From positions 1 through 14,590 of the IMG/VR virus record IMGVR_UViG_2563366895_000002: a stretch of DNA of 14,590 bases. One strand, given 5' to 3'. Within the stretch, counting starts at the first letter, position 1. The number at the start of each line of letters is the position of its first letter. The translations under genes were made by a program, and so were the position numbers. The notes below the pieces were generated by a model. It made no database searches, was not told where the DNA came from, and saw only the letters and a list, made by a program, of their open reading frames with translations. The stretch is from a virus (taxonomy: Duplodnaviria; Heunggongvirae; Uroviricota; Caudoviricetes). Shown here piece after piece: positions 1-14,590 of the stretch.

Positions 1-1164
1 TTACGCCTTCTTTATATCCTCCATAATTCCAGAGTGGGACATATTTGGGACATTATCACCAAAAATGTCGTCTATTTTCCTCGCATGCTCTGTCAAATGA
101 TTAGGCGCAAGGTGAGCATACCTACGAACCATTTCTATGGACTCCCATCCGCCCATTTCCTGAAGCACTGATAATGGGACGCCTGACTGAATCAGCCAGC
201 TTGCCCAGGTGTGTCTGAGGTCATGGAAACGGAAATCTTCAATTCCTGCACGACGACAAGCTGATAGCCATGATGTCTTGCTGTCGATGCGCATCTTCCT
301 GACCGCAGGCGTTGATGTTCCATCTGCTCGCTTAGCCGCCTTGGTATGTACAAACACCCATTTGTGATGCTTGCCTATTTGATCACGCAACACTTTACAG
401 GCGGTATCGTTCAGCGCCACACCAATGGCGCGGTTTGATTTGCTCTCTTCTGGATTCACCCAGGCAACTCGTCGCTGCATGTCGATTTGTTGCCATTCCA
501 GATTTATGATGTTCGACTTTCTCAGACCAGTTGCCAGCGCAAACTTGACGACAGATTTCAGTGGTTCGGGGCACTCATCAATAAGGCGTTTTGCTTCCTC
601 CTTTTCCAGCCATCTGACTCGCTTGTTTCTGACCGCTGGTATCTTGATGACAGGCGCTTTTTCCAGCCACTTCCAGTCGCGTTCTGCAGCACGGAGAATG
701 GCCTTTATCATGGCAAGATGCTTTGCCTTTGTCTGAGTTGATACTGGCTTTGGTTCATAAACAGGCGGTTCTTTACCTTTCCTGATGGCGGCCTGAACTT
801 TCTGTTTCCATATTTCTTTCGTCTTTCTGTTATGCATTCTGCTTACAGCAGAGTAAATCTTTGCCTCCGAGATATCTTTAAGCCTTATACCCTCAAAATG
901 TTCAAGCCAGAACTCAATCCGGCTTTTATCTGAATCGAGAGATTTTTTATCAGCTTTTTCCTCAAGCCATCTTAGGCAGGCCTCTTCAAAAGTGACATCA
1001 GGTAAATCCCCTAGCTTTTCTACTCGCCAGAGTTCTGCTTTTCGCTTGTCGTGCAACTCCTGAGCTTGCCGCTTGTCCTTTGTGCCAAGAGATTCCTTAA
1101 TTCGTTTCCCGCCCGGGAGCGAATACGAGGCATACCATATTTCATTTCTGCGGAAGAGTGACAT
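1..1164 (-). CDS. intD: Phage tyrosine integrase (DLP12/P22-type), complete 387 aa
   Basis: Full-length ORF on the minus strand; stop codon at bases 1-3. C-terminal catalytic region shows the tyrosine-recombinase motifs ([10 protein letters not shown] ... VRRYAHL). Recognised from memory as the DLP12 integrase; the 3' end faces the window edge as expected for an int gene next to attL/tRNA. Confidence 0.9.
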
Positions 1165-1296
1165 TTTCTTTCCTCTGTTATGCCATCACCCGCGCTCACC
1201 TGGACAGTATGCAGCGGAGACTGAAGCGCCGCAATGCAGGCTTGCCGTGTTGTGAGGTAAGGAGATTTTGGCTTGGTTGGATCTTTACGTGTTGCC

Positions 1297-1470
1297 TGTA
1301 AAAGCCGCGAGGACAACGCTGTCGCAGTGTTGGCGGAACTGCTGACGCGTGCTTATCCTTGTCCGCCGCTGACACCACGTATACCAGCCGCTGCGGGCCA
1401 CCCGGAGCACGCGGCACATTGCTTTGATGCTGAACTCAGCCTGATGTTTTTCAATAAAGACATACTTCAT
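1297..1470 (-). pseudogene. insF: IS3 OrfB (InsF) N-terminal fragment, truncated after ~58 codons
   Basis: [58 protein letters not shown] matches the InsF N-terminus, then diverges and hits a stop; the DDE catalytic core is absent. Confidence 0.75.
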
Positions 1471-2408: not shown

Positions 2409-2446
2409 GAGGCTCTTATATTTATATGAGCCTCGTTTTATGCTTT
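2409..2446 (+). terminator. Putative intrinsic terminator downstream of emrE
   Basis: GAGGCTC (2409-2415) pairs with GAGCCTC (2428-2434) around an AT-rich loop, followed by GTTTTATGCTTTTTG. Confidence 0.5.
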
Positions 2447-2633
2447 TTGTTAATGTCTTTATTTTTTTATGTATTCTTTTGTGCTTTCAAGATTATGGCG
2501 TAAGAAAATTGCAATACGATTATTGTTGTATATTCAAGATAATGTGACCTTAATTGTCTTTTTAAATAAAAATTAAACAAAAATTATATCTCACCACTAA
2601 GGTTTATAAAAGCATACGTTAGCAGGTGTCACC

Positions 2634-4160
2634 ATGAAAAAAGCCATAGCATATATGCGATTTTCATCACCAGGTCAGATGTCTGGCGACTCATTAAACC
2701 GACAGAGAAGACTTATTGCTGAATGGTTAAAGGTAAATAGTGATTATTATCTTGATACCATAACATATGAAGATTTAGGATTAAGTGCATTCAAAGGAAA
2801 GCATGCACAATCAGGAGCTTTTTCGGAATTTTTAGATGCTATAGAGCATGGTTATATATTGCCAGGAACTACATTGTTAGTTGAAAGTCTGGACAGACTT
2901 TCAAGAGAAAAAGTCGGTGAAGCGATTGAGCGTCTGAAATTGATTTTGAATCACGGTATTGATGTTATAACTCTTTGCGATAATACAGTCTATAATATTG
3001 ACTCTTTGAATGATCCATATTCATTAATAAAAGCCATACTTATAGCACAAAGGGCAAATGAAGAAAGCGAGATAAAGTCAAGTCGGGTTAAATTATCATG
3101 GAAGAAAAAACGGCAGGATGCACTGGAGTCAGGCACGATTATGACGGCGTCTTGTCCGAGATGGCTCTCCTTAGATGACAAAAGAACGGCTTTTGTTCCA
3201 GACCCCGACAGGGTGAAAACTATTGAGCTAATTTTTAAACTCAGGATGGAAAGGCGCTCATTGAATGCAATAGCCAAGTATTTAAATGATCATGCTGTAA
3301 AGAATTTCTCAGGAAAAGAAAGTGCATGGGGACCTTCTGTAATTGAAAAATTATTAGCGAATAAAGCTCTGATAGGTATATGCGTACCTTCATATCGTGC
3401 AAGAGGTAAAGGAATAAGTGAAATCGCTGGCTATTATCCCAGAGTCATATCAGATGATTTGTTTTACGCTGTGCAGGAAATTCGGTTGGCACCTTTTGGT
3501 ATTAGCAATAGTAGCAAAAACCCTATGTTGATAAATCTACTTCGAACAGTTATGAAGTGCGAGGCTTGTGGTAATACCATGATTGTTCATGCGGTATCTG
3601 GAAGTTTGCATGGCTATTATGTTTGTCCGATGAGAAGACTGCATCGATGTGACAGGCCATCAATAAAGAGAGATTTGGTTGATTATAATATCATTAATGA
3701 GTTGCTTTTTAATTGTAGTAAAATCCAACCAGTTGAAAACAAGAAAGATGCTAATGAAACTTTAGAGTTGAAAATTATTGAGCTCCAGATGAAAATTAAT
3801 AATTTAATTGCTGCATTATCTGTTGCGCCTGAAGTTACCGCTATAGCAGAAAAAATCAGAGTATTAGATAAGGAATTACGAAGGGCTTCTGTATCATTAA
3901 AAACTTTGAAGAGTAAAGCGGTGAGCTCACTTGGTGATTTTCATGCTATTGACTTAACCAGTAAAAATGGGCGAGAGCTATGTCGTACACTTGCCTATAA
4001 AACATTCGAAAAAATCATAATCAATACAGATAATAAAACCTGTGATATCTATTTTATGAATGGCATTGTTTTTAAACACTATCCTTTAATGAAAACAATA
4101 TCCGCCCAGCAGGCGATAAGTACTCTCAAATATATGGTTGATGGTGAGGTTTATTTTTGA
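2634..4160 (+). CDS. ybcK: Large serine recombinase (resolvase/invertase-type N-terminal domain), YbcK-like, 508 aa
   Basis: N-terminal YMRFSSPGQ motif with the presumptive catalytic Ser; a Cys-rich segment (CEACGN...CPMRRLHRC) typical of large serine recombinases. Matches DLP12 YbcK by length and sequence from memory. ATG at 2634 with AGGTG 6 nt upstream. Gene is visibly AT-rich. Confidence 0.85.
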   Translation: MKKAIAYMRFSSPGQMSGDSLNRQRRLIAEWLKVNSDYYLDTITYEDLGLSAFKGKHAQSGAFSEFLDAIEHGYILPGTTLLVESLDRLSREKVGEAIERLKLILNHGIDVITLCDNTVYNIDSLNDPYSLIKAILIAQRANEESEIKSSRVKLSWKKKRQDALESGTIMTASCPRWLSLDDKRTAFVPDPDRVKTIELIFKLRMERRSLNAIAKYLNDHAVKNFSGKESAWGPSVIEKLLANKALIGICVPSYRARGKGISEIAGYYPRVISDDLFYAVQEIRLAPFGISNSSKNPMLINLLRTVMKCEACGNTMIVHAVSGSLHGYYVCPMRRLHRCDRPSIKRDLVDYNIINELLFNCSKIQPVENKKDANETLELKIIELQMKINNLIAALSVAPEVTAIAEKIRVLDKELRRASVSLKTLKSKAVSSLGDFHAIDLTSKNGRELCRTLAYKTFEKIIINTDNKTCDIYFMNGIVFKHYPLMKTISAQQAISTLKYMVDGEVYF

Positions 4161-4271
4161 GTAATAATCACTTTTTCAACCGTGCTATAGTAAGAAAGTT
4201 AGGTAAGTACAATAAAATTATCTATCCTGAACGAAGCGTCCTGAGCTATGGTTTTACTATAGGGACTGCCA

Positions 4272-4589
4272 ATGGATGCTGGCGTTCTCGTTCTAGCAGT
4301 TCAACAATCCCCAATCACAAAACAATTCACTGATAACGAACTTTGCACACTCGCCTGGTTATGGCGAGCAGGGAATGTGATGTTAATTGCCTACCAGAAC
4401 GTTACTCATCTTCTTCAGGATGCGGAGCATGGTGAAGCTGGTCACTTCACTTCCATCGAGCAAGAATATCCCCAGATACTCAACAGAGCGCGAGCAATCC
4501 TCGTCCGAGAAACGGCACATGTAAAACTTCAGCCGTGGCAGGATGATAAGTGGAGTCGAGTATTGCCGTATTTGCGTCAAATCTGTTAG
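4272..4589 (+). CDS. Hypothetical protein, 105 aa, no family recognised
   Basis: ATG-initiated ORF with GC content near the host average, flanked by AT-rich DNA. No motif I can assign and no convincing Shine-Dalgarno seen; may be a gene remnant. Confidence 0.35.
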   Translation: MDAGVLVLAVQQSPITKQFTDNELCTLAWLWRAGNVMLIAYQNVTHLLQDAEHGEAGHFTSIEQEYPQILNRARAILVRETAHVKLQPWQDDKWSRVLPYLRQIC

Positions 4590-4686
4590 GAGTATAGCCG
4601 CCAGCCATGAGTGTTGTATTAAAACAAGGATGTCTATATATGGGATAGCGAGAGTATGAATATCAGTTATTTTGAGAGTTAACTGA

Positions 4687-4710
4687 TTGTGAAATTAGTT
4701 TTTTTCACAA
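4687..4710. promoter_or_regulatory. Inverted repeat TTGTGAAA-N8-TTTCACAA upstream of the 309-aa ORF; candidate operator
   Basis: Perfect 8-bp arms at 4687-4694 and 4703-4710 in an AT-rich intergenic region about 85 bp upstream of the ATG at 4794. Confidence 0.25.
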
Positions 4711-4793
4711 ACGAGTGGGGTTACTATGATGAGTGTTCTAATGCATAGGGAACACCTAATTTTTTCAATGAATTCAAATTGATAGGATCAAAA

Positions 4794-5723
4794 ATGGCAC
4801 AACAGAGAACTACCTCCCTCAGATCCATACCTTTAGACTTAGATGTTAAGCAAGAGGCTGTCATTAACGGTATAGAAATGGGGGTACTCGATAACGGAAT
4901 TCCGTACCTTACTCAGAATGGGTTGGCAAATGTTTGTGGTGTTCAGCGTTTGCGAATCAAGGAAATTACCGATGAGTGGGCTCAATCCGTTGAGAACGGT
5001 ATTTTCAAAAAAGGAAGAATGACTTTTATTGGTACATATCTTCTTAATGAAGGTTTTACAGATGAAAAACTTTATATACCAATAATTCGAAATGGTGTTG
5101 AGTACCATGCTTATCCAGATGTTGTATGCATGGCTATACTTGAATACTATGCCTTTGAAGCAAAACAAGCAGAAAGTGAGACTGCAATTAGATCTTACAG
5201 AGAGCTTGCTAAAAAAGGCCTCAAGACATTTATATACGAGGCGCTAAAATATCAACCGGAGGACCCGTGGAGGCATTACCATGACAGAGTATCTTTATTA
5301 AAAGATAAGGGAACCATACCTGATGGGTATTTCATTATATTTAATGAAATTGCAGGTATGATGGTAGATCTCATCAATGCTGGATTAGCGATTAATCAGC
5401 ATACCGTACCTGATGGCAGTGTTGGTTCTTGCTGGGCGCGTCACTGGAAAGCAAAGGGGTTAGCAACAGAATTTGGAGAAAGAGTAGACTGTGAGCATTA
5501 TTACCCTGAAGATTTTCTTCAGGCAAGTTCCAATCCTCAGATCATTAATGCCTATCCTGATTCTGCATTGTCAGAGTTTCGTAGATGGTTTAAGCATGAA
5601 TATTTAACCACAAAGTTCCCACCGTATATTCTTAAAAAATCAAACGTGCTTCCTGGTGGTACAGAAGATGCTAATCGTCTGATAGAAGCTTTCAAAAAAT
5701 CAGAGCTAGAAAATAAACCATAA
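4794..5723 (+). CDS. Hypothetical protein, 309 aa, unknown function; candidate prophage cargo or defence protein
   Basis: ATG at 4794 preceded by AGGA at 4784-4787 (the track's 4779 start is an upstream TTG). Long clean ORF, visibly AT-rich, no transmembrane or signal sequence evident. N-terminal segment (GIEMGVLDNGIPYLTQNGLANVCGVQRLRIKEITDEW) is loosely reminiscent of KilA-N/Bro-N DNA-binding domains; this is unverified. Confidence 0.6.
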   Translation: MAQQRTTSLRSIPLDLDVKQEAVINGIEMGVLDNGIPYLTQNGLANVCGVQRLRIKEITDEWAQSVENGIFKKGRMTFIGTYLLNEGFTDEKLYIPIIRNGVEYHAYPDVVCMAILEYYAFEAKQAESETAIRSYRELAKKGLKTFIYEALKYQPEDPWRHYHDRVSLLKDKGTIPDGYFIIFNEIAGMMVDLINAGLAINQHTVPDGSVGSCWARHWKAKGLATEFGERVDCEHYYPEDFLQASSNPQIINAYPDSALSEFRRWFKHEYLTTKFPPYILKKSNVLPGGTEDANRLIEAFKKSELENKP

Positions 5724-5821
5724 TTGTTTTTTGGCTTTTGATTTTACATAATCATTTTGCCATAATCATGTCATCGGAGCCTGAACAACTCCGGTGACTT
5801 CTGCGCTAAACGGGGACGTTT

Positions 5822-5923
5822 ATGCGCACATACAATCCAAACTCTCTTCTCCCTTCACAGATGCAGAGATGCACCTGCGATTTTTTGCATCCAGCGTTTG
5901 ACCTCTGCGGAGGTGAAGCGTGA
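5822..5923 (+). CDS. ylcH: Small protein YlcH-like, 33 aa
   Basis: [36 protein letters not shown] whose stop overlaps the ybcN GTG start (GTGA); position and size match DLP12 ylcH from memory. Confidence 0.45.
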
Positions 5924-6375
5924 ATCTCCCACAAGATGGCATCAAATTACATCGCGGTAACTTCACCGCTATCGGTCGGCAGATCCAGCCTTATCTGGAG
6001 GAGGGCAAATGCTTTCGCATGGTGCTTAAACCGTGGCGTGAGAAACGCAGTCTTTCCCAGAATGCACTCAGCCACATGTGGTACAGCGAAATCAGTGAAT
6101 ACCTCATCAACAGGGGTAAAACGTTCGCCACTCCAGCTTGGGTAAAAGATGCTCTCAAACACACATATCTCGGTTATGAAACCAAAGACCTGGTTGATGT
6201 CGTAACCGGTGATATCACCACTATCCAGTCGTTACGCCATACCTCCGATCTTGATACCGGAGAGATGTATGTCTTCCTGTGTAAGGTTGAAGCCTGGGCG
6301 GTGAATATTGGCTGCCACCTGACTATTCCGCAGAGCTGCGAGTTCCAGCTGCTCCGTGACAAGCAGGAGGCGTAA
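5920..6375 (+). CDS. ybcN: YbcN, NinB/Orf-like DNA-binding protein, 151 aa
   Basis: GTG start at 5920 with GGAGG upstream; translation matches DLP12 YbcN from memory. Confidence 0.85.
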
Positions 6376-6545
6376 TGGCTACACCGCTTATTCGTGTCAT
6401 GAACGGACACATCTACAGAGTATCAAATCGTCGTAAGCGTAAGCCTGAGCCGAAGCCATCCGAAATACCAACACTGCTCGGATATACCGCTAGCCTGGTT
6501 GATAAAAAATGGTTGCGACTGGCAGCAAGGAGGAATCATGGCTGA
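6375..6545 (+). CDS. ninE: NinE-like protein, 56 aa
   Basis: ATG overlaps the ybcN stop (TAATG); translation [56 protein letters not shown]. Below the track's length cutoff, found by reading the sequence. Confidence 0.75.
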   Translation: MATPLIRVMNGHIYRVSNRRKRKPEPKPSEIPTLLGYTASLVDKKWLRLAARRNHG

Positions 6546-6828
6546 TTTGAGAAAAGCAGCGCGTGGTCGGGAATGCCAGGTAAGAATCCCTGGCGTATGT
6601 AATGGCAATTCTGAAACGTCTGTACTGGCACATATCCGGCTGGCTGGATTGTGCGGTACCGGTATCAAACCGCCAGACCTGATTGCCACCATTGCATGTT
6701 CTGCCTGCCACGACGAAATCGACCGCCGCACACATTTTGTCGATGCTGCATATGCAAAAGAATGCGCGCTGGAAGGTATGGCGAGAACACAGGTTATTTG
6801 GCTGAAAGAGGGGGTTATTAAGGCGTGA
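6538..6828 (+). CDS. ybcO: YbcO, Cys/His-rich putative metal-binding nuclease-like protein, 96 aa
   Basis: ATG at 6538 overlapping the ninE 3' end; translation [24 protein letters not shown]...CSACHDEID matches YbcO from memory (the track's 6499 start is an upstream alternative). Confidence 0.8.
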
Positions 6829-7187
6829 ATACCTACAGCATCACATTACCCTGGCCTCCGAGCAATAATCGCTATTACCGCCATAATCGCGGGCGCACGC
6901 ACATCAGCGCAGAAGGGCAGGCATACCGCGATAACGTCACCCGAATCATTAAAAACGCAATGCTGGATATCGGCCTGGCTATGCCAGTGAAAATCCGTAT
7001 TGAGTGCCACATGCCGGATCGCCGTCGCCGTGACCTGGATAATCTGCAAAAAGCCGCTTTTGACGCACTCACCAAAGCAGGTTTCTGGCTGGATGATGCT
7101 CAGGTCGTTGATTACCGCGTTGTGAAGATGCCTGTTACCAAAGGTGGGAGGCTGGAACTGACCATCACCGAAATGGGGAATGAATGA
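6825..7187 (+). CDS. rusA: RusA Holliday junction resolvase, 120 aa
   Basis: GTG at 6825 overlapping the ybcO stop (GTGA); translation [36 protein letters not shown]... matches RusA from memory. Confidence 0.9.
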
Positions 7188-7324
7188 TGTTTGAGTTTTA
7201 TATGGCAGAACTTCTTCGCCACCGCTGGGGGCATCTGCGCTTATATCGTTTCCCCGGTTCTGTTTTGACCGATTACCGAATACTGAAGAATTACGCCAAA
7301 ACCCTGACAGGAGCAGGAGTATGA
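7184..7324 (+). CDS. ylcG: YlcG-like small protein, 46 aa
   Basis: ATG overlapping the rusA stop; translation [46 protein letters not shown]. Confidence 0.6.
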
Positions 7325-7409
7325 AGTCAGAGATAACAATCAACTAATACTGTTTTGTTGATTTTTGCTTGTAATTGGCGTTCTGGTCTGATTTTTGTGG
7401 AGTAAGTTG

Positions 7410-7793
7410 ATGCGTGATATTCAGATGGTTCTTGAGCGTTGGGGAGCGTGGGCGGCTAATAATCATGAAGATGTGACCTGGTCGTCCATTGCCGCCGGTT
7501 TTAAGGGATTAATTACTTCAAAAGTAAAATCTCGCCCGCAATGTTGTGACGATGACGCGATGATTATTTGCGGGTGCATGGCCCGTCTGAAAAAGAACAA
7601 CAGCGATTTGCACGATTTATTAGTAGATTATTATGTAGTCGGTATGACATTCATGTCACTGGCAGGTAAGCATTGCTGCTCTGATGGTTATATCGGGAAA
7701 AGGTTACAGAAGGCTGAGGGCATAATTGAAGGGATGTTAATGGCATTAGATATCCGGTTAGAGATGGATATCGTTGTTAATAACTCTAATTAA
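7410..7793 (+). CDS. quuD: Late-gene antiterminator Q homolog (QuuD), 127 aa
   Basis: ATG at 7410 (the track's 7395 start is an upstream TTG); translation [24 protein letters not shown]... with the Cys cluster [12 protein letters not shown]; sits immediately upstream of the hairpin cluster and lysis genes. Confidence 0.85.
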
Positions 7794-7810
7794 TATGCCA
7801 ATTGTTTACT

Positions 7811-7844
7811 AAAAATTATTAAAAATGGGGCGTTGAGACGCCCC
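7811..7844 (-). terminator. GC-rich hairpin GGGGCG-TTGAGA-CGCCCC with U-tract on the minus strand
   Basis: Stem 7827-7832 / 7839-7844; the + strand upstream is AAAAATTATTAAAAAT, which reads as a T-tract after the hairpin on the minus strand. Could terminate nmpC transcription or be part of the late promoter region; strand assignment is uncertain. Confidence 0.4.
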
Positions 7845-7883
7845 CAAAAATAAAGGGTAATATATAACAGAAGGTTTATATAG

Positions 7884-7972
7884 TTAGAAGCAAGGTTGTG
7901 CTTCTAAAGGAAGTGGCTTGAGGGAGCCACTTATATGTTGGGGAGGCAACGCCTCCCGCAACATATCTTTTT
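7884..7972 (+). terminator. Three consecutive hairpins downstream of quuD, the last followed by CTTTTT (tR'-like intrinsic terminator)
   Basis: Hairpins at 7884-7907 (TTAGAAGCA/TGCTTCTAA), 7911-7932 (AAGTGGCT/AGCCACTT) and 7933-7966 (ATATGTTGGGGAGGC/GCCTCCCGCAACATAT), then T-run 7967-7972. Position between Q and the lysis genes fits a lambdoid late leader/terminator. Confidence 0.5.
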
Positions 7973-7982
7973 CGTAATCAGA

Positions 7983-9080
7983 TTAGAACTGGTAAACCAG
8001 ACCTACAGCAACGATGTCATCAGTGCTTACACCGAGTGCTTTAGTGAAGTCATTTTTGTCAAGCAGGTTGATTTTGTAATCAACGAAAGTAGACATATTT
8101 TTGTTGAAGTAATAGGTTGCACCTACATCAACATATTTGACTAAGTCCTGATCGCCCCATACTCCAAGATCTTTACCTTTAGATTGCAGGTAAGCAACGG
8201 ACGGACGCAGACCGAAATCGAACTGATATTGTGCAACAGCTTCGAAGTTTTGGGCTTTATTAGCAACGAAGTGATCAGCAAATACAGTCATATTCTGGGT
8301 TTCAGAATAGGTAGTGGCCAGGTAAATGTTGTTAGCGTCATATTTCAGACCTGCGGCCCAAACTTCTGCATTTTTACCGGAAGCAAATACTTCAGGAAGA
8401 ACTTTCCCTGCATTAACTTGAGTGTCGGTACGATCAGATTTCGCATAAGTTGCACCGATACCGAATCCTTCGTATTCATAGGTAGCAGAGAAACCGAAGC
8501 CATCACCGTTACCTTCAGTGTAGTTATCGAAATCGCTACGATCGTTTTTGCCTTGGTACTGAGCAGCAAAGTTCAGACCATCAACCAGACCAAAGAAGTC
8601 GTTGTTACGATAGGTTGCAACACCAGTGGTGCGACCAGTCATGAACACATCTGTTTGGGTCCAGGTATCGCCACCGAATTCTGGCAGAACGTCAGTCCAC
8701 GCACCGATGTCGTATGCTACACCGTAGTTACGGCCGTAATCGATTGAGCCGTAGTCACCGAATTTCAGGCCTGCAAATGCAAGACGGGTTTTGTCTTTGG
8801 AGGAACCTTGAGATTCAGCGCGGTTGCCTTTGAATTCATATTCCCACTGACCGAAACCAGTCAGTTGATCGTTGATTTGGGTTTCACCTTTGAAGCCAAG
8901 ACGGGCATAAGTAGTATCACCATCATCTGCATCATTAGAGGAGAAGTAGTGCTTGGCATTAACTTTCCCGTACAGATCCAGCTTGTTACTGTCTTTATTA
9001 TAAATTTCAGCTGCCTGAGCAGACATCGCCATCAGTACTGATGCAGCTACAGCAGAAATTGCCACTGTTAATTTTTTCAT
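7983..9080 (-). CDS. nmpC: Outer membrane porin NmpC (OmpC/OmpD family), intact 365 aa with signal peptide
   Basis: Translation begins [29 protein letters not shown] and ends with the porin C-terminal ...VAVGLVYQF; full length with no interruption. Confidence 0.9.
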
Positions 9081-9668
9081 CGTGAGCCCTTTTTTTTGAA
9101 CTATTATTAAAAAATGATGTCACTGCGCGATAAATATTCATCTAATCAATGTGATTATTTCAAGATGTAAGTTTTAGTTTCTCATTTAATTTGTGAAGTA
9201 GATCTCTATTTTTATCTGAACTTTTTCTATCGAAACCTATTTATGGCTCTTATTTGAACAAAAATAAACCTATTAGCTAATTTATATTAATGGTTGTTAT
9301 TTATGGAGGTTCTATAATTCGGCAGTTTAATTTAAATCAACTAAAAATAACGTCTGAAATTATTTATTGGTTATTTGTTGAGGTTTTCTTATGTATTTGT
9401 GGTGGTGTTTTGAACACTCGGTAGCATTCTCATAAATATCATTCAGTGGTTTACGTACGTAAAAAATTGGTTATGCTGTTAAGAGTGGTTACTTCGTCAC
9501 ACAGCTTAAACCCGCCGTCGAGCTGGTTTTTCCATTTTTTGAGTCTCGATATTAGCTGATAACTCAATACCTGAGTTATTCACTGACTCCGAGTCTGTTA
9601 CGTTTCTGCTTTTTTGCGATACGTTGTATTCCCTCAATTTACACCCGCTTTGTCTGCGAGGTGGGGTT

Positions 9669-9884
9669 ATGAAATCCATGGATAAGTTAACAACGGGTGT
9701 CGCCTATGGCACCTCAGCAGGTAGTGCCGGTTACTGGTTTTTACAGCTGCTCGATAAAGTCACGCCCTCACAGTGGGCAGCAATAGGTGTGCTGGGTAGC
9801 CTGGTATTTGGCCTGCTGACGTACCTGACAAACCTTTATTTCAAGATTAAAGAAGATAAGCGCAAGGCTGCGAGAGGTGAATAA
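9669..9884 (+). CDS. essD: Pinholin (phage 21 S-type), 71 aa, with MKSM dual-start motif
   Basis: Translation [71 protein letters not shown]; ATG at 9669 (the track's 9624 start is an upstream alternative); stop overlaps the rrrD start (TAATG). Confidence 0.8.
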
Positions 9885-10381
9885 TGCCTCCATCATTACG
9901 AAAAGCCGTTGCTGCTGCTATTGGTGGCGGAGCAATTGCTATAGCATCAGTGTTAATTACTGGCCCAAGTGGTAACGATGGTCTGGAAGGTGTCAGCTAC
10001 ATACCATACAAAGATATTGTTGGTGTATGGACTGTATGTCACGGGCATACAGGAAAAGACATCATGCTCGGTAAAACGTATACCAAAGCAGAATGCAAAG
10101 CCCTCCTGAATAAAGACCTTGCCACGGTCGCCAGACAAATTAACCCGTACATCAAAGTCGATATACCGGAAACAATGCGCGGCGCTCTTTACTCATTCGT
10201 TTACAACGTGGGTGCTGGCAATTTCAGAACATCGACGCTTCTTCGCAAAATAAACCAGGGCGATATCAAAGGCGCATGTGATCAGCTACGTCGCTGGACA
10301 TATGCTGGCGGTAAGCAATGGAAAGGTCTCATGACTCGTCGTGAGATTGAGCGTGAAATCTGTTTGTGGGGTCAGCAATGA
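9884..10381 (+). CDS. rrrD: SAR endolysin (lysozyme), 165 aa
   Basis: N-terminal Gly/Ala-rich signal-anchor-release segment ([20 protein letters not shown]) followed by a lysozyme domain; matches RrrD from memory. Confidence 0.9.
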
Positions 10382-10839
10382 ACAGAGTAACCGCGATTAT
10401 CTCCGCTCTGGTTATCTGCATCATCGTCGGCCTGTCATGGGCTGTTAATCATTACCGTGATAACGCCATTACCTACAAAGCCCAGCGCGACAAAAATGCC
10501 AGAGAACTGAAGCTGGCGAACGCGGCAATTACTGACATGCAGATGCGTCAGCGTGATGTTGCTGCGCTCGATGCAAAATACACGAAGGAGTTAGCTGATG
10601 CGAAAGCTGAAAATGATGCTCTGCGTGATGATGTTGCCGCTGGTCGTCGTCGGTTGCACATCAAAGCAGTCTGTCAGTCAGTGCGTGAAGCCACCACCGC
10701 CTCCGGCGTGGATAATGCAGCCTCCCCCCGACTGGCAGACACCGCTGAACGGGATTATTTCACCCTCAGAGAGAGGCTGATCACTATGCAAAAACAACTG
10801 GAAGGAGCCCAGAAGTATATTAATGAGCAGTGCAGATAG
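10378..10839 (+). CDS. rzpD: Rz-like spanin (inner-membrane subunit), 153 aa
   Basis: ATG at 10378 overlapping the rrrD stop; N-terminal transmembrane helix and coiled-coil-like Ala/Asp/Arg-rich region. Confidence 0.85.
10598..10780 (+). CDS. rzoD: Rz1-like outer-membrane lipoprotein spanin subunit, 60 aa, embedded in rzpD in another frame
   Basis: ATG at 10598 with GGAG upstream; lipobox LVVVGC; proline-rich (PPPPPAW...PPPDW); lies entirely within rzpD. Confidence 0.8.
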
Positions 10840-10870
10840 AGCTGCCCATATCGATGGGCAACTCATGCAA

Positions 10871-11164
10871 TTATTGTGAGCAATACACACGCGCTTCCAG
10901 CGGAGTATAAATGCCTAAAGTAATAAAACCGAGCAATCCATTTACGAATGTTTGCTGGGTTTCTGTTTTAACAACATTTTCTGCGCCGCCACAAATTTTG
11001 GCTGCATCAACAGTTTTCTCCTGTCCAATTCCCGAAACGAAGAAGTGATGGGTGATGGTTTCCTTTGGTGTTACTGCTGTCGGTTTGTTTCCAACAGTAA
11101 ACGTCTGTTGAGCACATCCTGTAATAAGCATTGCCAGAGCGGCAGAAAACAACATTTTTTTCAT
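10871..11164 (-). CDS. borD: Bor lipoprotein homolog (serum-resistance-associated), 97 aa
   Basis: Translation MKKMLFSAALAMLITGC... with lipobox LITGC; ATG at 11164 (the track's 11212 start is an upstream alternative). Confidence 0.85.
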   Translation of the reverse strand: MKKMLFSAALAMLITGCAQQTFTVGNKPTAVTPKETITHHFFVSGIGQEKTVDAAKICGGAENVVKTETQQTFVNGLLGFITLGIYTPLEARVYCSQ

Positions 11165-11523
11165 CTTATTATCCTGCATTGTTAAAAACGGCAGAATCCT
11201 ATGTGACAACAATTAAACGATAGTTAAATGGATTGATGAAAATTAAAACTATATAGGTGGATGCTCAGCCTATTGGAGGAGGGGGGCACTCAGAATCCTG
11301 TGGAATGAAATAAACCGCTCTTTCTGTCCATTACCCTTTTAGCTGCGCTGTATCGTCGCCGTATTCCCGCATTAACCATGACCGTAGCCCGACGGGGAAT
11401 TCCTTCTGCGTGAGTGTGCGGGAATAATCAAAAACGATGCACACCGGGTTTTACTGTGCTGACAGACGCAGGGTTACCCTCATAGTCGCTTTTCCGGTGC
11501 GATGGTGGAAGAAACCGGGATGT

Positions 11524-11718
11524 TTATTCATCATCACTTTGGATTGATGTATATGCTCTCTTTTCTGACGTTAGTCTCCGACGGCAGGCTTCAATGACCC
11601 AGGCTGAGAAATTCCCAGACCCTTTTTGCTCAAGAGCGATGTTAATTTGTTCAATCATTTGGTTAGGAAAGCGGATGTTGCGGGTTGTTGTTCTGCGGGT
11701 TCTGTTCTTAGTTGACAT
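11524..11718 (-). CDS. ylcI: Small ribbon-helix-helix-like protein (YlcI-like), 64 aa
   Basis: ATG at 11718; Arg-rich N-terminus followed by a predicted strand-helix-helix pattern (RNIRFPNQMIEQINIALEQKGSGNFSAWVIEACRRRL). Confidence 0.55.
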   Translation of the reverse strand: MSTKNRTRRTTTRNIRFPNQMIEQINIALEQKGSGNFSAWVIEACRRRLTSEKRAYTSIQSDDE

Positions 11719-11879
11719 GAGGTTGCCCCGTATTCAGTGTTGCTGATTTGTATTGTCTGAAGTTGTTTTTACGTTAAGTTGATGCAGATCAATTAATACG
11801 ATACCTGCGTCATAATTGATTATTTGACGTGGTTTGATGGCGTAGATGCACGTTGTGATATGTAGATGATAATTATTAT

Positions 11880-12106
11880 CATTTTTCGGGTCCTTTCCGG
11901 CGATCCGACAGGTTACGGGGCGGCGACCTCGCGGGTTTTCGCTATTTATGAAAATTTTCCGGTTTAAGGCGTTTCCGTTCTTCTTCGTCATAACTTAATG
12001 TTTTTATTTAAAATACCCTCTGAAAAGAAAGGAAACGACAGGTGCTGAAAGCGAGCTTTTTGGCCTCTGTCGTTTCCTTTCTCTGTTTTTGTCCGTGGAA
12101 TGAACA
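11880..12106 (+). other. Lambda-type cos site (cosQ, cosN 12-nt cohesive end at 11918-11929, cosB with Nu1 R-sites)
   Basis: Sequence ...CGGGTCCTTTCCGGCGATCCGACAGGTTACG/GGGCGGCGACCTCGCGGGTTTTCGCTATTTATGAAAATTTTCCGGTTTAAGGCGTTTCCGTTCTTCTTCG... is nearly identical to the lambda cos region as I remember it, continuing into the Nu1 start codon at 12107. Confidence 0.8.
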
Positions 12107-13327
12107 ATGGAAGTCAACAAAAAGCAGCTGGCTGATATTTTCGGTGCGAGTATCCGTACCATTCAGAACTGGCAGGAGCAGGGAATGCCCGTTCTGCGAG
12201 GCGGTGGCAAGGGTAATGAGGTGCTTTATGATTCTGCCGCCGTCATAAAATGGTATGCCGAAACCATGCCACAGGCGAGTTCTGTTGTTTCAATTACGTT
12301 GATTGGTGGCGCTGGATTTAACGTGGGGTCACCTCAACAGGCAGGTATATCTGAACTTGTTTTACGTGCAGGTAATGGTAATCCGAAGGGGATTACTGGT
12401 GCTTTATGGCAGCGCACATCGACAGGGTTTACAAATTTTGCCTGGGTCAATACATCTGGTGATACTTACGATATTTACGTTGCAATCGGAAATTATGCGA
12501 CTGGTGTAAATATTCAATGGGATTATACCAGTAATGCCAGCGTGACGATTCATACGTCACCAGCATATTCTGCTAATAAGCCGGAAGGGTTAACGGACGG
12601 TACAGTTTATTCACTCTATACGCCATCAGAGCAGTTTTATCCGCCTGGCGCACCAATCCCGTGGCCATCAGATACCGTTCCGTCTGGCTATGCCCTGATG
12701 CAGGGGCAGACTTTTGACAAATCTGCATACCCGAAACTTGCAGCCGCTTATCCGTCAGGCGTGATCCCTGATATGCGTGGCTGGACGATTAAGGGCAAAC
12801 CTGCCAGTGGTCGGGCCGTATTGTCTCAGGAACAGGACGGCATTAAATCGCATACCCACAGCGCCAGCGCATCCAGTACGGATTTGGGGACGAAAACCAC
12901 ATCGTCGTTTGATTACGGCACTAAATCCACGAATAACACTGGTGCGCATACCCATAGTTTAAGTGGCAGCACGAATGCAGCTGGTAATCACAGCCATAGA
13001 GATGGCCGTCGATTTAACCCCAGTGTTTTTAAAGATACTTATCAATATGGTTATACAAGCTCAGGTCAAAATACCTGGGGTGTACAAGGCTCAGTAGGTA
13101 TGTCTACGGGGTGGTTAGCGAATACCAGTACAGATGGTAATCATAGCCATTCACTGTCCGGCACAGCAGCATCTGCAGGTGCACACGCGCATACTGTCGG
13201 TATTGGTGCTCATACGCACTCCGTTGCGATTGGTTCACATGGACACACCATCACCGTTAACGCTGCTGGTAACGCGGAAAACACCGTCAAAAACATCGCA
13301 TTTAACTATATTGTGAGGCTTGCATAA
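12107..13327 (+). CDS. Chimeric ORF: terminase small subunit Nu1 N-terminus (aa 1-~52, winged-helix DNA-binding part) fused in frame to a side tail fibre C-terminal region (~354 aa) with HxH repeats
   Basis: First 52 residues [52 protein letters not shown] match lambda Nu1; after about 12264 the sequence switches to tail-fibre-like sequence ([48 protein letters not shown]...) with six HxH motifs (GAHTHS, GNHSHR, GNHSHS, GAHAHT, GAHTHS, GSHGHT). Confidence 0.8.
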
Positions 13328-13902
13328 TGGCATTCAGAATGAGTGAACAACCACGGACCATAAAAATTTATAATCTGCTGGCCGGAACTAATGAATTTAT
13401 TGGTGAAGGTGACGCATATATTCCGCCTCATACAGGTCTGCCAGCAAACAGTACCGATATTGCACCACCAGATATTCCTGCTGGCTTTGTGGCTGTTTTC
13501 AACAGTGATAAGGCATCGTGGCATCTCGTTGAAGACCATCGGGGTAAAACGGTTTATGACGTAGCGTCAGGGGACGCGTTATTTATTTCTGAACTCGGTC
13601 CGTTACCGGAAAATGTTACCTGGTTATCGCCGGAAGGGGAGTTTCAGAAGTGGAACGGCACAGCCTGGGTGAAAGATGCAGAAGCAGAAAAACTGTTCCG
13701 GATCCGAGAGGCGGAAGAAACAAAAAACAGCCTGATGCAGGTAGCCAGTGAGCATATTGCGCCACTTCAGGATGCTGTAGATCTGGAAATCGCAACGGAG
13801 GAAGAAACCTCATTGCTGGAAGCCTGGAAAAAGTATCGGGTGTTGCTGAACCGTGTTGATACGTCAACTGCACAGGATATTGAATGGCCAGCACTGCCGT
13901 AG
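13327..13902 (+). CDS. tfaR: Tail fibre assembly protein (Tfa; TfaR/TfaQ-like), 191 aa
   Basis: ATG overlaps the stop of the upstream fibre ORF (TAATG); translation [54 protein letters not shown]... matches Rac/Qin-type Tfa from memory. Confidence 0.9.
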
Positions 13903-13999
13903 GGTAAAACATATAAATTCTATAATTAGATGTATCTTTCCATTTACGGCAAGGAAGGGGGCTTGGAAGACGTAAAGCATCTCACACCGAGATTATTTT

Positions 14000-14590
14000 T
14001 TATATGTCAGGTGTCTGAAGTTTTGCTTTGGCTCTTAAAATGGTTTGCCGCGAGGTTTTGAATTCCCGGGCAATGGCACTTATACTTACACCTGACTTAA
14101 TTCGTTCGAATACCACCTGTTTCTGTTCTTCATTTAACACAGGTGGTCGACCAAAACGTTTCCCTGCGCCGCGGGCTCTTACTATCCCGGAATGAGTGCG
14201 TTCAAGTAAAAGGTCTCGTTCAAATTCAGCGACTGCTGAAATTACGTGCATCATCATTTTTCCTGTTGGACTGGTCAGGTCAATGCCCCCCAATGCTAAG
14301 CAATGCACTCTGATACCTGTTTCGGTCAGTTGTTCCACTGTTTTCCTGATATCCATTGCATTACAACCAAGGCGATCCAGTTTTGTCACAATCAATTGAT
14401 CACCACATTTCAGGCGAGCAAGCAACCGGTTAAAACCAGGACGCTCACTGGTTGCTGCTGAGCCGCTAATGTGTTCTTCGATTATTTGCTGAGGTTTGAT
14501 TTTAAAACCTGCACTTTCGATTTCCCTGCGTTGATTTTCGATGGTCTGATCCAGCGTTGATATCCGACAGTAAGCAAAAATTCGAGACAT
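14000..14590 (-). CDS. pinR: Serine DNA invertase of the Pin/Gin/Hin/Cin family, complete 196 aa
   Basis: Start codon at the window edge (14588-14590); N-terminal catalytic motif [10 protein letters not shown] with the active-site Ser, and a C-terminal HTH ([22 protein letters not shown]). Closest to PinR/PinQ from memory. Confidence 0.9.

Follow-up and report, generated by a model that had tools for sequence, protein, structure and literature searches.

The window, by which we mean the whole stretch of viral DNA analysed here (14,590 nucleotides), carries in order intD, an IS3 fragment, emrE, ybcK, the nin region with rusA, quuD, an nmpC-type porin gene, essD-rrrD-rzpD, iss/bor and ylcI, followed after ylcI by a cos site, a stub of the small terminase gene Nu1, a fragment of the side tail fibre gene (stf), tfa and pinR. 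The porin gene is intact. The main features outside cos are listed below, in part by comparison with strain RM9387, which holds a full-length relative of this prophage.

1-1164, minus strand: intD, integrase (annotation)
1301-1821, no strand assigned: IS3 fragment in place of a 7.5-kb early region (annotation and comparison with RM9387; Pfam HTH_Tnp_1)
11524-11718, minus strand: ylcI (DUF3950), nearest gene to the left of cos (annotation and Pfam)
12107-12263, plus strand: stub of Nu1 (small terminase), 52 codons, with the amino acids of lambda gpNu1 1-52, i.e. most of the winged-HTH DNA-binding domain
12262-12263, no strand assigned: deletion junction with the 2-bp microhomology AA, joining Nu1 codon 52 to mid-stf (comparison with RM9387)
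12264-13327, plus strand: C-terminal part of stf (Pfam Collar and Phage_fiber), 100% identical to the stf of RM9387
13327-13902, plus strand: tfa, tail fibre assembly gene (Pfam Caudo_TAP, E=3e-44)
14000-14590, minus strand: pinR-type serine invertase (Pfam Resolvase and HTH_7)

The best genome match was E. coli WL164, in which 14,588 of the 14,590 bases are identical, the two differences (5994 and 6190) both falling in ybcN. There, the tRNA-Arg gene argU lies 16 bp to the left of the window start and the attL core about 60 bp to the left. The att core repeat (30 nt or longer) occurs at 5941 and 25949 of the WL164 locus sequence, so that the remnant ends on the right about 8.0 kb past cos, after ompT, and measures about 20 kb as a whole. 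Integration at argU with an adjacent intD and an att core at the far end, together with the characteristic gene order, identifies the element as a DLP12-type lambdoid prophage at argU, in a defective state. Its DNA is 97-100% identical to that of RM9387 and of PhiR34_1, a live phage counterpart that has the same integrase, emrE, ybcK, porin gene, lysis genes, bor, cos, Nu1 and A.

Residues 1-53, counted from the start of the Nu1 stub, match Pfam Phage_Nu1 (E=1.3e-28), and homology to lambda ends after 12263. From this point the reading frame runs on through the last 354 codons of stf, which makes an ORF of 406 aa (12107-13327) with Pfam matches to Phage_Nu1, Collar and Phage_fiber (fibre repeat). 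The original prediction, made from the sequence without database searches, had described a 52-codon Nu1 stub in a prophage devoid of terminase and capsid genes. The 52 codons do encode residues 1-52 of lambda gpNu1, but they form part of this fusion rather than a free ORF. The rest of the description was correct, since no gene for a large terminase, portal, capsid or tail shaft was found in the window among the ORFs, in the annotation or with Pfam, and the Nu1 stub is all that remains of the terminase.

The cos site and its subsites

Between ylcI and the Nu1 stub lies a lambda-type cos, with the following parts.

11861-12099, plus strand: complete lambda-type cos, 234 of 238 bases as in lambda, identical to the full-length prophage of RM9387 (segment defined in PMC4856287)
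11888-11894, plus strand: cosQ, GGGTCCT, the packaging-termination signal, equal to lambda 48473-48479 and at the same distance to cosN
11907-11934, plus strand: cosN nicking site, identical to lambda, with flanks 11907-11917 and 11930-11934
11918-11929, plus strand: 12-nt cohesive end, GGGCGGCGACCT, the bases at the two nick positions being conserved
11935-11967, plus strand: I2 bent-DNA segment (lambda bp 18-50), identical to lambda
11967-11985 (outer bounds approximate), plus strand: cosB R3, small-terminase binding site, core CGTTTCC from 11970, as in lambda (repeat analysis)
11986-12025, plus strand: I1 between R3 and R2, IHF binding and bend, as in lambda (location per PMC4856287)
12026-12041, minus strand: cosB R2, inverted, AGAAAGGAAACGACAG, as in lambda (inverted repeat; core complement at 12031)
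12067-12083, plus strand: cosB R1, core CGTTTCC at 12071, identical to lambda (direct repeat)

The reference for lambda was the DE3 record, in which cos is annotated and the 12 nt are labelled as the cos site; the lambda coordinates of cosQ are reportedly those of Wieczorek and Feiss (2001). As a yardstick for a complete cos we used the 238-bp segment (lambda 48446-182) of Feiss and colleagues (PMC4856287), which corresponds to window 11861-12099. All of the defined subsites, from cosQ and cosN (the 12-nt cohesive end included) through I2, R3, I1 and R2 to R1, proved to be identical to lambda base for base. Alignment of window 11902-12135 to lambda (bp 48487-218) gave 100% identity, with 11918 corresponding to lambda bp 1 and all of lambda bp 1-182 reproduced at 11918-12099. 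The alignment is free of indels over lambda bp 1-218 and leaves the spacing between cosN and cosB unaltered, while R3 forms a direct repeat with R1 and an inverted repeat with R2, as in the lambda layout. The nicks predicted from the alignment are at 11917/11918 on the top strand and 11929/11930 on the bottom strand.

The four bases that differ from lambda (11874, 11882, 11886 and 11901) are all outside cosQ and cosN, with 11886 located 2 bp upstream of cosQ and 11901 between cosQ and cosN. The original prediction had called cosQ, cosN and the R-sites near-identical to lambda, placed the top-strand nick at 11917/11918 and named mutation of critical cosN or R-site positions as what would refute it; the alignment bears out the first two, and no such position is mutated. 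The cohesive end, cosQ (a highly conserved heptamer, PMC4669245), I2 with its spacing (needed for a packaging step after cleavage, PMC4856287) and a cosB with R3, R2, R1 and I1 are thus all in place. Judged by its sequence, the site has all the parts for initiation (cosN, I2, cosB) and for termination (cosQ, cosN, I2) of packaging. It resembles the cos of phage lambda in all subsites, their spacing and their orientation relative to Nu1, and differs from it in the four substitutions, located in a non-critical part upstream of cosN, and in having no functional terminase operon behind it. Also, the lambda site recurs once per genome length in the concatemer, whereas that of the window is a single chromosomal copy.

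Such sites are common. Counted as present when at least 80% of 11861-12106 was covered, a lambda-type cos was found in 3,979 of 5,426 complete E. coli genomes (73%), at a median of two places per genome. In 3,261 of the 5,426 genomes cos was followed by full Nu1 and A. The other genomes include many copies cut off inside the terminase genes at varied points, the K-12 type among them.

Origin of the remnant

RM9387 and many other strains carry at argU a full-length prophage of about 48.1 kb. That of RM9387 shares intD, emrE, ybcK, the porin gene, the lysis genes, iss and cos with the window, and continues past cos with a complete nohD, large terminase, portal, capsid and tail genes, J, lom, a 986-aa stf, tfa and pinR. 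Compared with this prophage, window 1-1300 is identical, the IS3 fragment at 1301-1821 replaces exo, bet, gam, the repressor gene, O, P and part of ren (7.5 kb), the segment 1822-12263 differs only at 1828-1831 and 2414, and 12262-14590 is again identical. Over the 12.2 kb from 2415 to 14590 there is therefore not one point difference from RM9387, apart from a deletion of exactly 21,198 bp that runs from Nu1 codon 53 to mid-stf (positions 19762-40959 of the RM9387 locus sequence are absent). Only AA is shared at the junction, which is the signature of illegitimate recombination. This exact junction occurred in one of the 5,426 complete E. coli genomes. Set against its 48-kb relative, the allele is a clean case of prophage decay, in which two deletions have occurred and point changes are confined to the IS3 scar with its junction region (1301-2414).

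Given that no point difference has arisen over 12.2 kb, the deletion must be very recent, and no change is to be expected in a site of 246 bp. An intact cos is then the null expectation and provides no evidence of selective retention. To speak of a cos "retained" in the remnant, as the original prediction did, is in this sense misleading, and we rejected selection for keeping cos in the window, no decay being due yet in 12.2 kb identical to the full-length prophage. An independent case was found near ybhB in TOK-001, consisting of cos, a 78-codon Nu1 stub, a stf fragment and tfa. That several independent remnants (K-12 DLP12, the window allele and TOK-001) have kept cos next to no more than a terminase stub could hint at a retention bias, although cos-keeping remnants were found by searching with cos, which makes their ascertainment biased.

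The DLP12 prophage of K-12 (qsr'), in which cos lies upstream of nohD, resembles the window remnant in its argU locus and integrase, in the order emrE, ybcK, nin region, rusA, quuD, nmpC, essD-rrrD-rzpD, bor, ylcI, cos and Nu1, and in having lost morphogenesis genes by a deletion that brought the terminase region up against tail-fibre genes. The two deletions are independent: K-12 has a full-length nohD and a piece of A fused near tfaD, whereas in the window 52 Nu1 codons are in frame with mid-stf. The cos of the window is also nearer to lambda than that of K-12, which has extra changes at lambda bp 53 (the first base of the R3 core), 73, 85, 102, 186 and 187. The porin gene, intact here, is interrupted by IS5 in K-12, and other genes stand in the window remnant in the place of K-12 ybcL and ybcM.

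Predicted packaging from an orphan cos

In lambda, IHF at I1 assists the small terminase in binding the R sites, and the large terminase nicks cosN. Lambda terminase reportedly (Kotani et al. 1992) cuts the E. coli chromosome at the cos of a cryptic prophage. With cos intact, the cosB specificity that of lambda and the element's own terminase lost, it is plausible that a superinfecting phage with a terminase of lambda specificity would cleave at the window cos. On superinfection gpNu1 and IHF would bind R3-I1-R2-R1 and gpA would nick at 11917/11918 and 11929/11930. After cleavage the terminase does not leave the cosB end; the resulting Complex I docks on a prohead and the DNA is translocated in the direction of Nu1, while the end on the cosQ side is left exposed to nucleases (PMC4856287). 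To the right of cos, WL164 carries the stub, the truncated stf, tfa, pinR, ydfK, a methyltransferase gene, a hydrolase gene and ompT, and beyond ompT envY, ybcH, nfrAB, the cus operon, pheP, nfsB and ent/fep genes. The terminase-bound right end would thus feed into the prohead the Nu1 stub, the stf fragment, tfa, pinR, ompT, envY and the cus and ent/fep genes. Since packaging from 11918 would proceed rightward, emrE, ybcK, the porin gene and iss, all left of cos, would not be packaged.

The terminases of cos phages end packaging only at a second, downstream cosQ-cosN (PMC6687093, PMC4669245). They make no headful cut, and uncut DNA protruding from the head blocks the attachment of tails (PMC6687093). 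A blastn search (word size 11) of the WL164 chromosome with cos, the stub and stf gave one place only, and thus neither a second lambda-type cos nor a co-resident lambda-type Nu1 in this genome, the closest complete one (2 SNPs from the source strain). On this basis we rejected a co-resident helper or a second cos for WL164; the other prophages of the source strain may include either. Packaging begun at the single site could not terminate and would yield almost no infectious transducing particles. Packaging from a single cos gives defective, tail-less particles of the docL type. The left end, on which the lysis genes, bor/iss and the porin gene lie, would meanwhile be unprotected and form a recombinogenic double-strand end.

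A setting in which chromosomal cos sites do serve is that of lambda dilysogens, the passive prophages of the Feiss laboratory assay, where a helper terminase uses them in situ when two cos bracket the DNA (PMC4669245). The likeness lies in a chromosomal cos within a non-induced prophage and a terminase supplied in trans (PMC4669245). In the dilysogens, however, two cos stand one genome length apart, and in the window and WL164 there is one.

The cos satellites (the E. coli PICI EcCICFT073, SaPIbov5, P4) provide the other obvious comparison, being likewise small integrated elements with an integrase, a helper-type cosN and no capsid genes of their own. What allows their transfer is excision followed by replication into concatemers that bear one cos in each unit (PMC6092414). 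PICIs replicate from their own pri-rep/ori, whereas the window remnant has no replication module: no primase or replicase gene with an ori was found in the annotation or the ORFs examined, and the O, P region has been replaced by the IS3 fragment. An AlpA/Xis-type regulator or excisionase was neither annotated nor matched by Pfam next to intD, a search that a small divergent Xis could escape, and no Rpp, Sid, Cpm or Ccm-like hijack gene was annotated or seen among the ORFs examined. The cos PICIs of E. coli have a different cosB and use Rpp to redirect the small terminase of the helper (PMC6092414, PMC6739421), while the window has the helper's own cosB. Unlike cos satellites, which are free of phage lysis and virion genes, the remnant still carries lysis genes, Q and tail-fibre genes (essD, rrrD, rzpD, quuD, the stf fragment and tfa). 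Assignment to the PICI or P4-type satellites was therefore rejected, as the element departs from them in four defining features. Neither does it qualify as a platform for lateral transduction, which requires headful pac packaging and in situ replication ahead of excision, as it is a cos system without terminase or replication genes.

Our preferred explanation, which we regard as quite probable from the sequence comparisons, is that this is a vestigial cos, still chemically competent, which was orphaned by one recent illegitimate deletion of 21.2 kb and has no dedicated function. The original prediction went further and proposed that the remnant and the DNA around it could be mobilised by way of the orphan cos, with a helper terminase, superinfecting or co-resident, cutting here and packaging adjacent DNA, cargo genes included, by satellite-like transduction. 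An intact cos of lambda specificity speaks for this, as do the abundance of potential helpers (the 3,261 genomes with cos and full Nu1 and A) and the in situ packaging of passive prophages, given two bracketing cos. Moreover, a PhiR34_1-like phage inserted in tandem at attL would by our calculation create a cos-to-cos distance of about 41 kb (29.2 + 12.0 kb) with both sites in the same orientation, about 85% of the lambda genome length, and emrE, ybcK, the porin gene and iss would all lie on such a segment. A cos-to-cos length of about 41 kb would be packageable by the packaging limits of lambda. This tandem-lysogen route is a speculative one, and the sole route that we see for the cargo of the left arm. 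Against mobilisation, WL164 has one cos and no lambda-type Nu1 elsewhere, and packaging is unidirectional and leads away from the cargo (PMC4856287). Phages of the cos type need a second cos and are regarded as performing neither generalized nor lateral transduction (PMC6687093, PMC12829572). The remnant lacks replication genes, an ori, the early region, any detectable Xis and any packaging-redirection gene, in contrast to cos satellites, which depend on excision and concatemeric replication (PMC6092414), and an allele present in one sequenced genome shows no sign of spread. With a single cos, rightward packaging, no helper Nu1 and neither replication nor excision, satellite-like transduction finds no support in WL164 and we consider it unlikely. 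The original interpretation is thus partly supported overall: the site itself is as described, but it is not a gene-moving device.

A different role would be interference, if cos and the stub had been kept because the Nu1(1-52)::Stf fusion poisons the small-terminase dimers of a helper or occupies cosB, or because cos acts as a terminase decoy. The stub does keep all of the reported interface residues of the DNA-binding-domain dimer of the lambda small terminase, I11, F12, G13, S43, A44, I47 and A51 (PMC6739421) without the region that binds the large terminase subunit, the fusion is in frame and downstream of an intact late operon with quuD, and the Rpp proteins of PICIs act by mimicking the small-terminase DNA-binding domain (PMC6739421). 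Yet chance alone would put one fusion in three in frame, the stub stops at residue 52 within helix alpha-3 and may not fold, and a lone site in the chromosome cannot titrate the terminase when hundreds of phage genomes compete for it. The allele is the product of a one-off recent deletion, and no conservation or spread points to selection, all of which makes interference highly improbable. A further reading, that cos only looks intact and is disabled in termination or cleavage by the four upstream differences (11874, 11882, 11886 and 11901), draws on the closeness of two of them to cosQ. It strikes us as the least credible of all, because the same four bases are found in the full-length prophage of RM9387 and three of them in K-12 DLP12, the cos region of which yields viable recombinants with lambda (PMC3945230), and because the cosQ heptamer and cosN are unchanged. 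PhiR30_1, a complete, plaque-forming phage grown on E. coli C with Nu1 and A beside its cos, is 100% identical over window 11700-12263; a search of the literature found no paper describing the PhiR phages. Disabling mutations were accordingly rejected, the four differences being common to a full-length prophage and a complete phage. Were the vestigial reading wrong and the site not inert, with a tandem DLP12-type phage exporting the left arm (intD, emrE, ybcK, porin gene, iss) from cos to cos or the fusion acting as an Rpp-like terminase poison, which we think very unlikely, the finding would be a modest addition to proto-satellite biology.

Probable recombination at orphan cos sites

For a vestigial but chemically competent cos, the realistic outcome of superinfection would be homologous exchange between the remnant and the incoming lambdoid phage, and not packaging. 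An intact lambda-type cos in a defective DLP12 is known already, both in kind and at the argU locus, from K-12. De Paepe et al. (2014) described in K-12 DLP12 a 3.3-kb lambda-like patch "separated by the cos site" (PMC3945230), and Poteete et al. (2004) found most crossovers to fall in the DLP12 cos patch (PMC545071); in these studies the K-12 site figures as the homologue of lambda cos and as a hotspot of recombination with lambda. Lambda recombines with the DLP12 region about 100-fold more frequently than with Rac or Qin, of 19 DLP12-lambda junctions 10 directly adjoin cos, and every recombinant tested was viable; breaks at the K-12 DLP12 cos have been proposed, not demonstrated, as the cause of this hotspot (PMC3945230). 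The consequence for recombination was demonstrated for the K-12 DLP12 allele only, from which we carry it over by analogy to the window allele, where it may equally apply.

The significance of the present case is small, a lambda-type cos being found in roughly three out of four complete E. coli genomes and the K-12 DLP12 case being documented. More generally, orphan cos sites may be places where superinfecting lambdoid phages can break the chromosome and recombine with it. Such exchange would feed phage mosaicism, with emrE, the porin gene and iss/bor re-entering live phages by recombination rather than by packaging.

Deletions around the cos site and their products

The deletion that ends within nu1 on one side and within the side tail fibre gene (stf) on the other has produced an in-frame ORF of 406 aa (window 12107-13327, + strand), which joins residues 1-52 of Nu1, identical to those of lambda, to the C-terminal end of the side tail fibre (354 residues). 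Within the DNA-binding domain of the small terminase, the Nu1 part covers the HTH and the wing, and helix 3 for the most part. PGAP annotates the same ORF as two pseudogene fragments.

An independent orphan lambda-type cos is present in E. coli TOK-001 (positions 4001-6262 of its locus L005, NZ_AP018395.1), where it is followed by a 78-codon Nu1 stub, an stf fragment and then tfa. It adjoins ybhB, i.e. it lies at a chromosomal site other than that of the window. This case and that of K-12 DLP12 show that deletions running from terminase to tail fibre and sparing cos are recurrent, a recurrence that may be no more than chance.

In the remnant of the window, a 121-bp stretch of tfa (window 13746-13866) has a second copy in direct orientation and with 88% identity, located ~8.8 kb downstream within a truncated tfa beyond pinR (positions 22517-22637 of L001, the locus of the closest genome, E. 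coli WL164). This repeat is probably a relic of an invertible tail-fibre segment under the control of the pinR invertase.

Early region and accessory genes

Four features of the window are relevant here:

1301-1821: IS3 fragment, retaining only the transposase HTH
4272-5723 (+): between ybcK and ybcN, an ORF with a P22AR C-terminal domain (105 aa) and a 314-aa ORF without any Pfam match
5920-6375: ybcN, open (151 codons), as in RM9387
7983-9080 (-): intact nmpC-type porin gene (365 aa)

The IS3 fragment stands in place of 7.5 kb of early genes of the full-length RM9387 prophage, comprising exo, bet, gam, the repressor, O, P and part of ren. Since K-12 DLP12 carries a complete IS3 inside ren, at the equivalent position, this early-region loss looks IS3-associated. 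In K-12 DLP12 and phage PhiR34_1 the slot of the 105-aa and 314-aa ORFs is occupied by ybcL and ybcM, and the ORF pair of this lineage is a swapped accessory module. The porin gene is interrupted by IS5 in K-12 DLP12, unlike that of the window, and a similar gene is found in the live phage PhiR34_1. The only two differences between the window and WL164 (5994 and 6190) both fall within ybcN, for which an internal stop is annotated in WL164.

Live relatives of DLP12

There are full-length DLP12-type prophages of ~48 kb, such as that of E. coli RM9387 (about 486-48647 of its locus L003), and complete phage genomes with the DLP12 integrase, emrE, ybcK and the porin gene, e.g. PhiR34_1 (L008). Live relatives thus exist for the classic 'cryptic' DLP12, and in them emrE and a porin gene are phage cargo. 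The propagation host on record for PhiR34_1 is E. coli K-12 MG1655.
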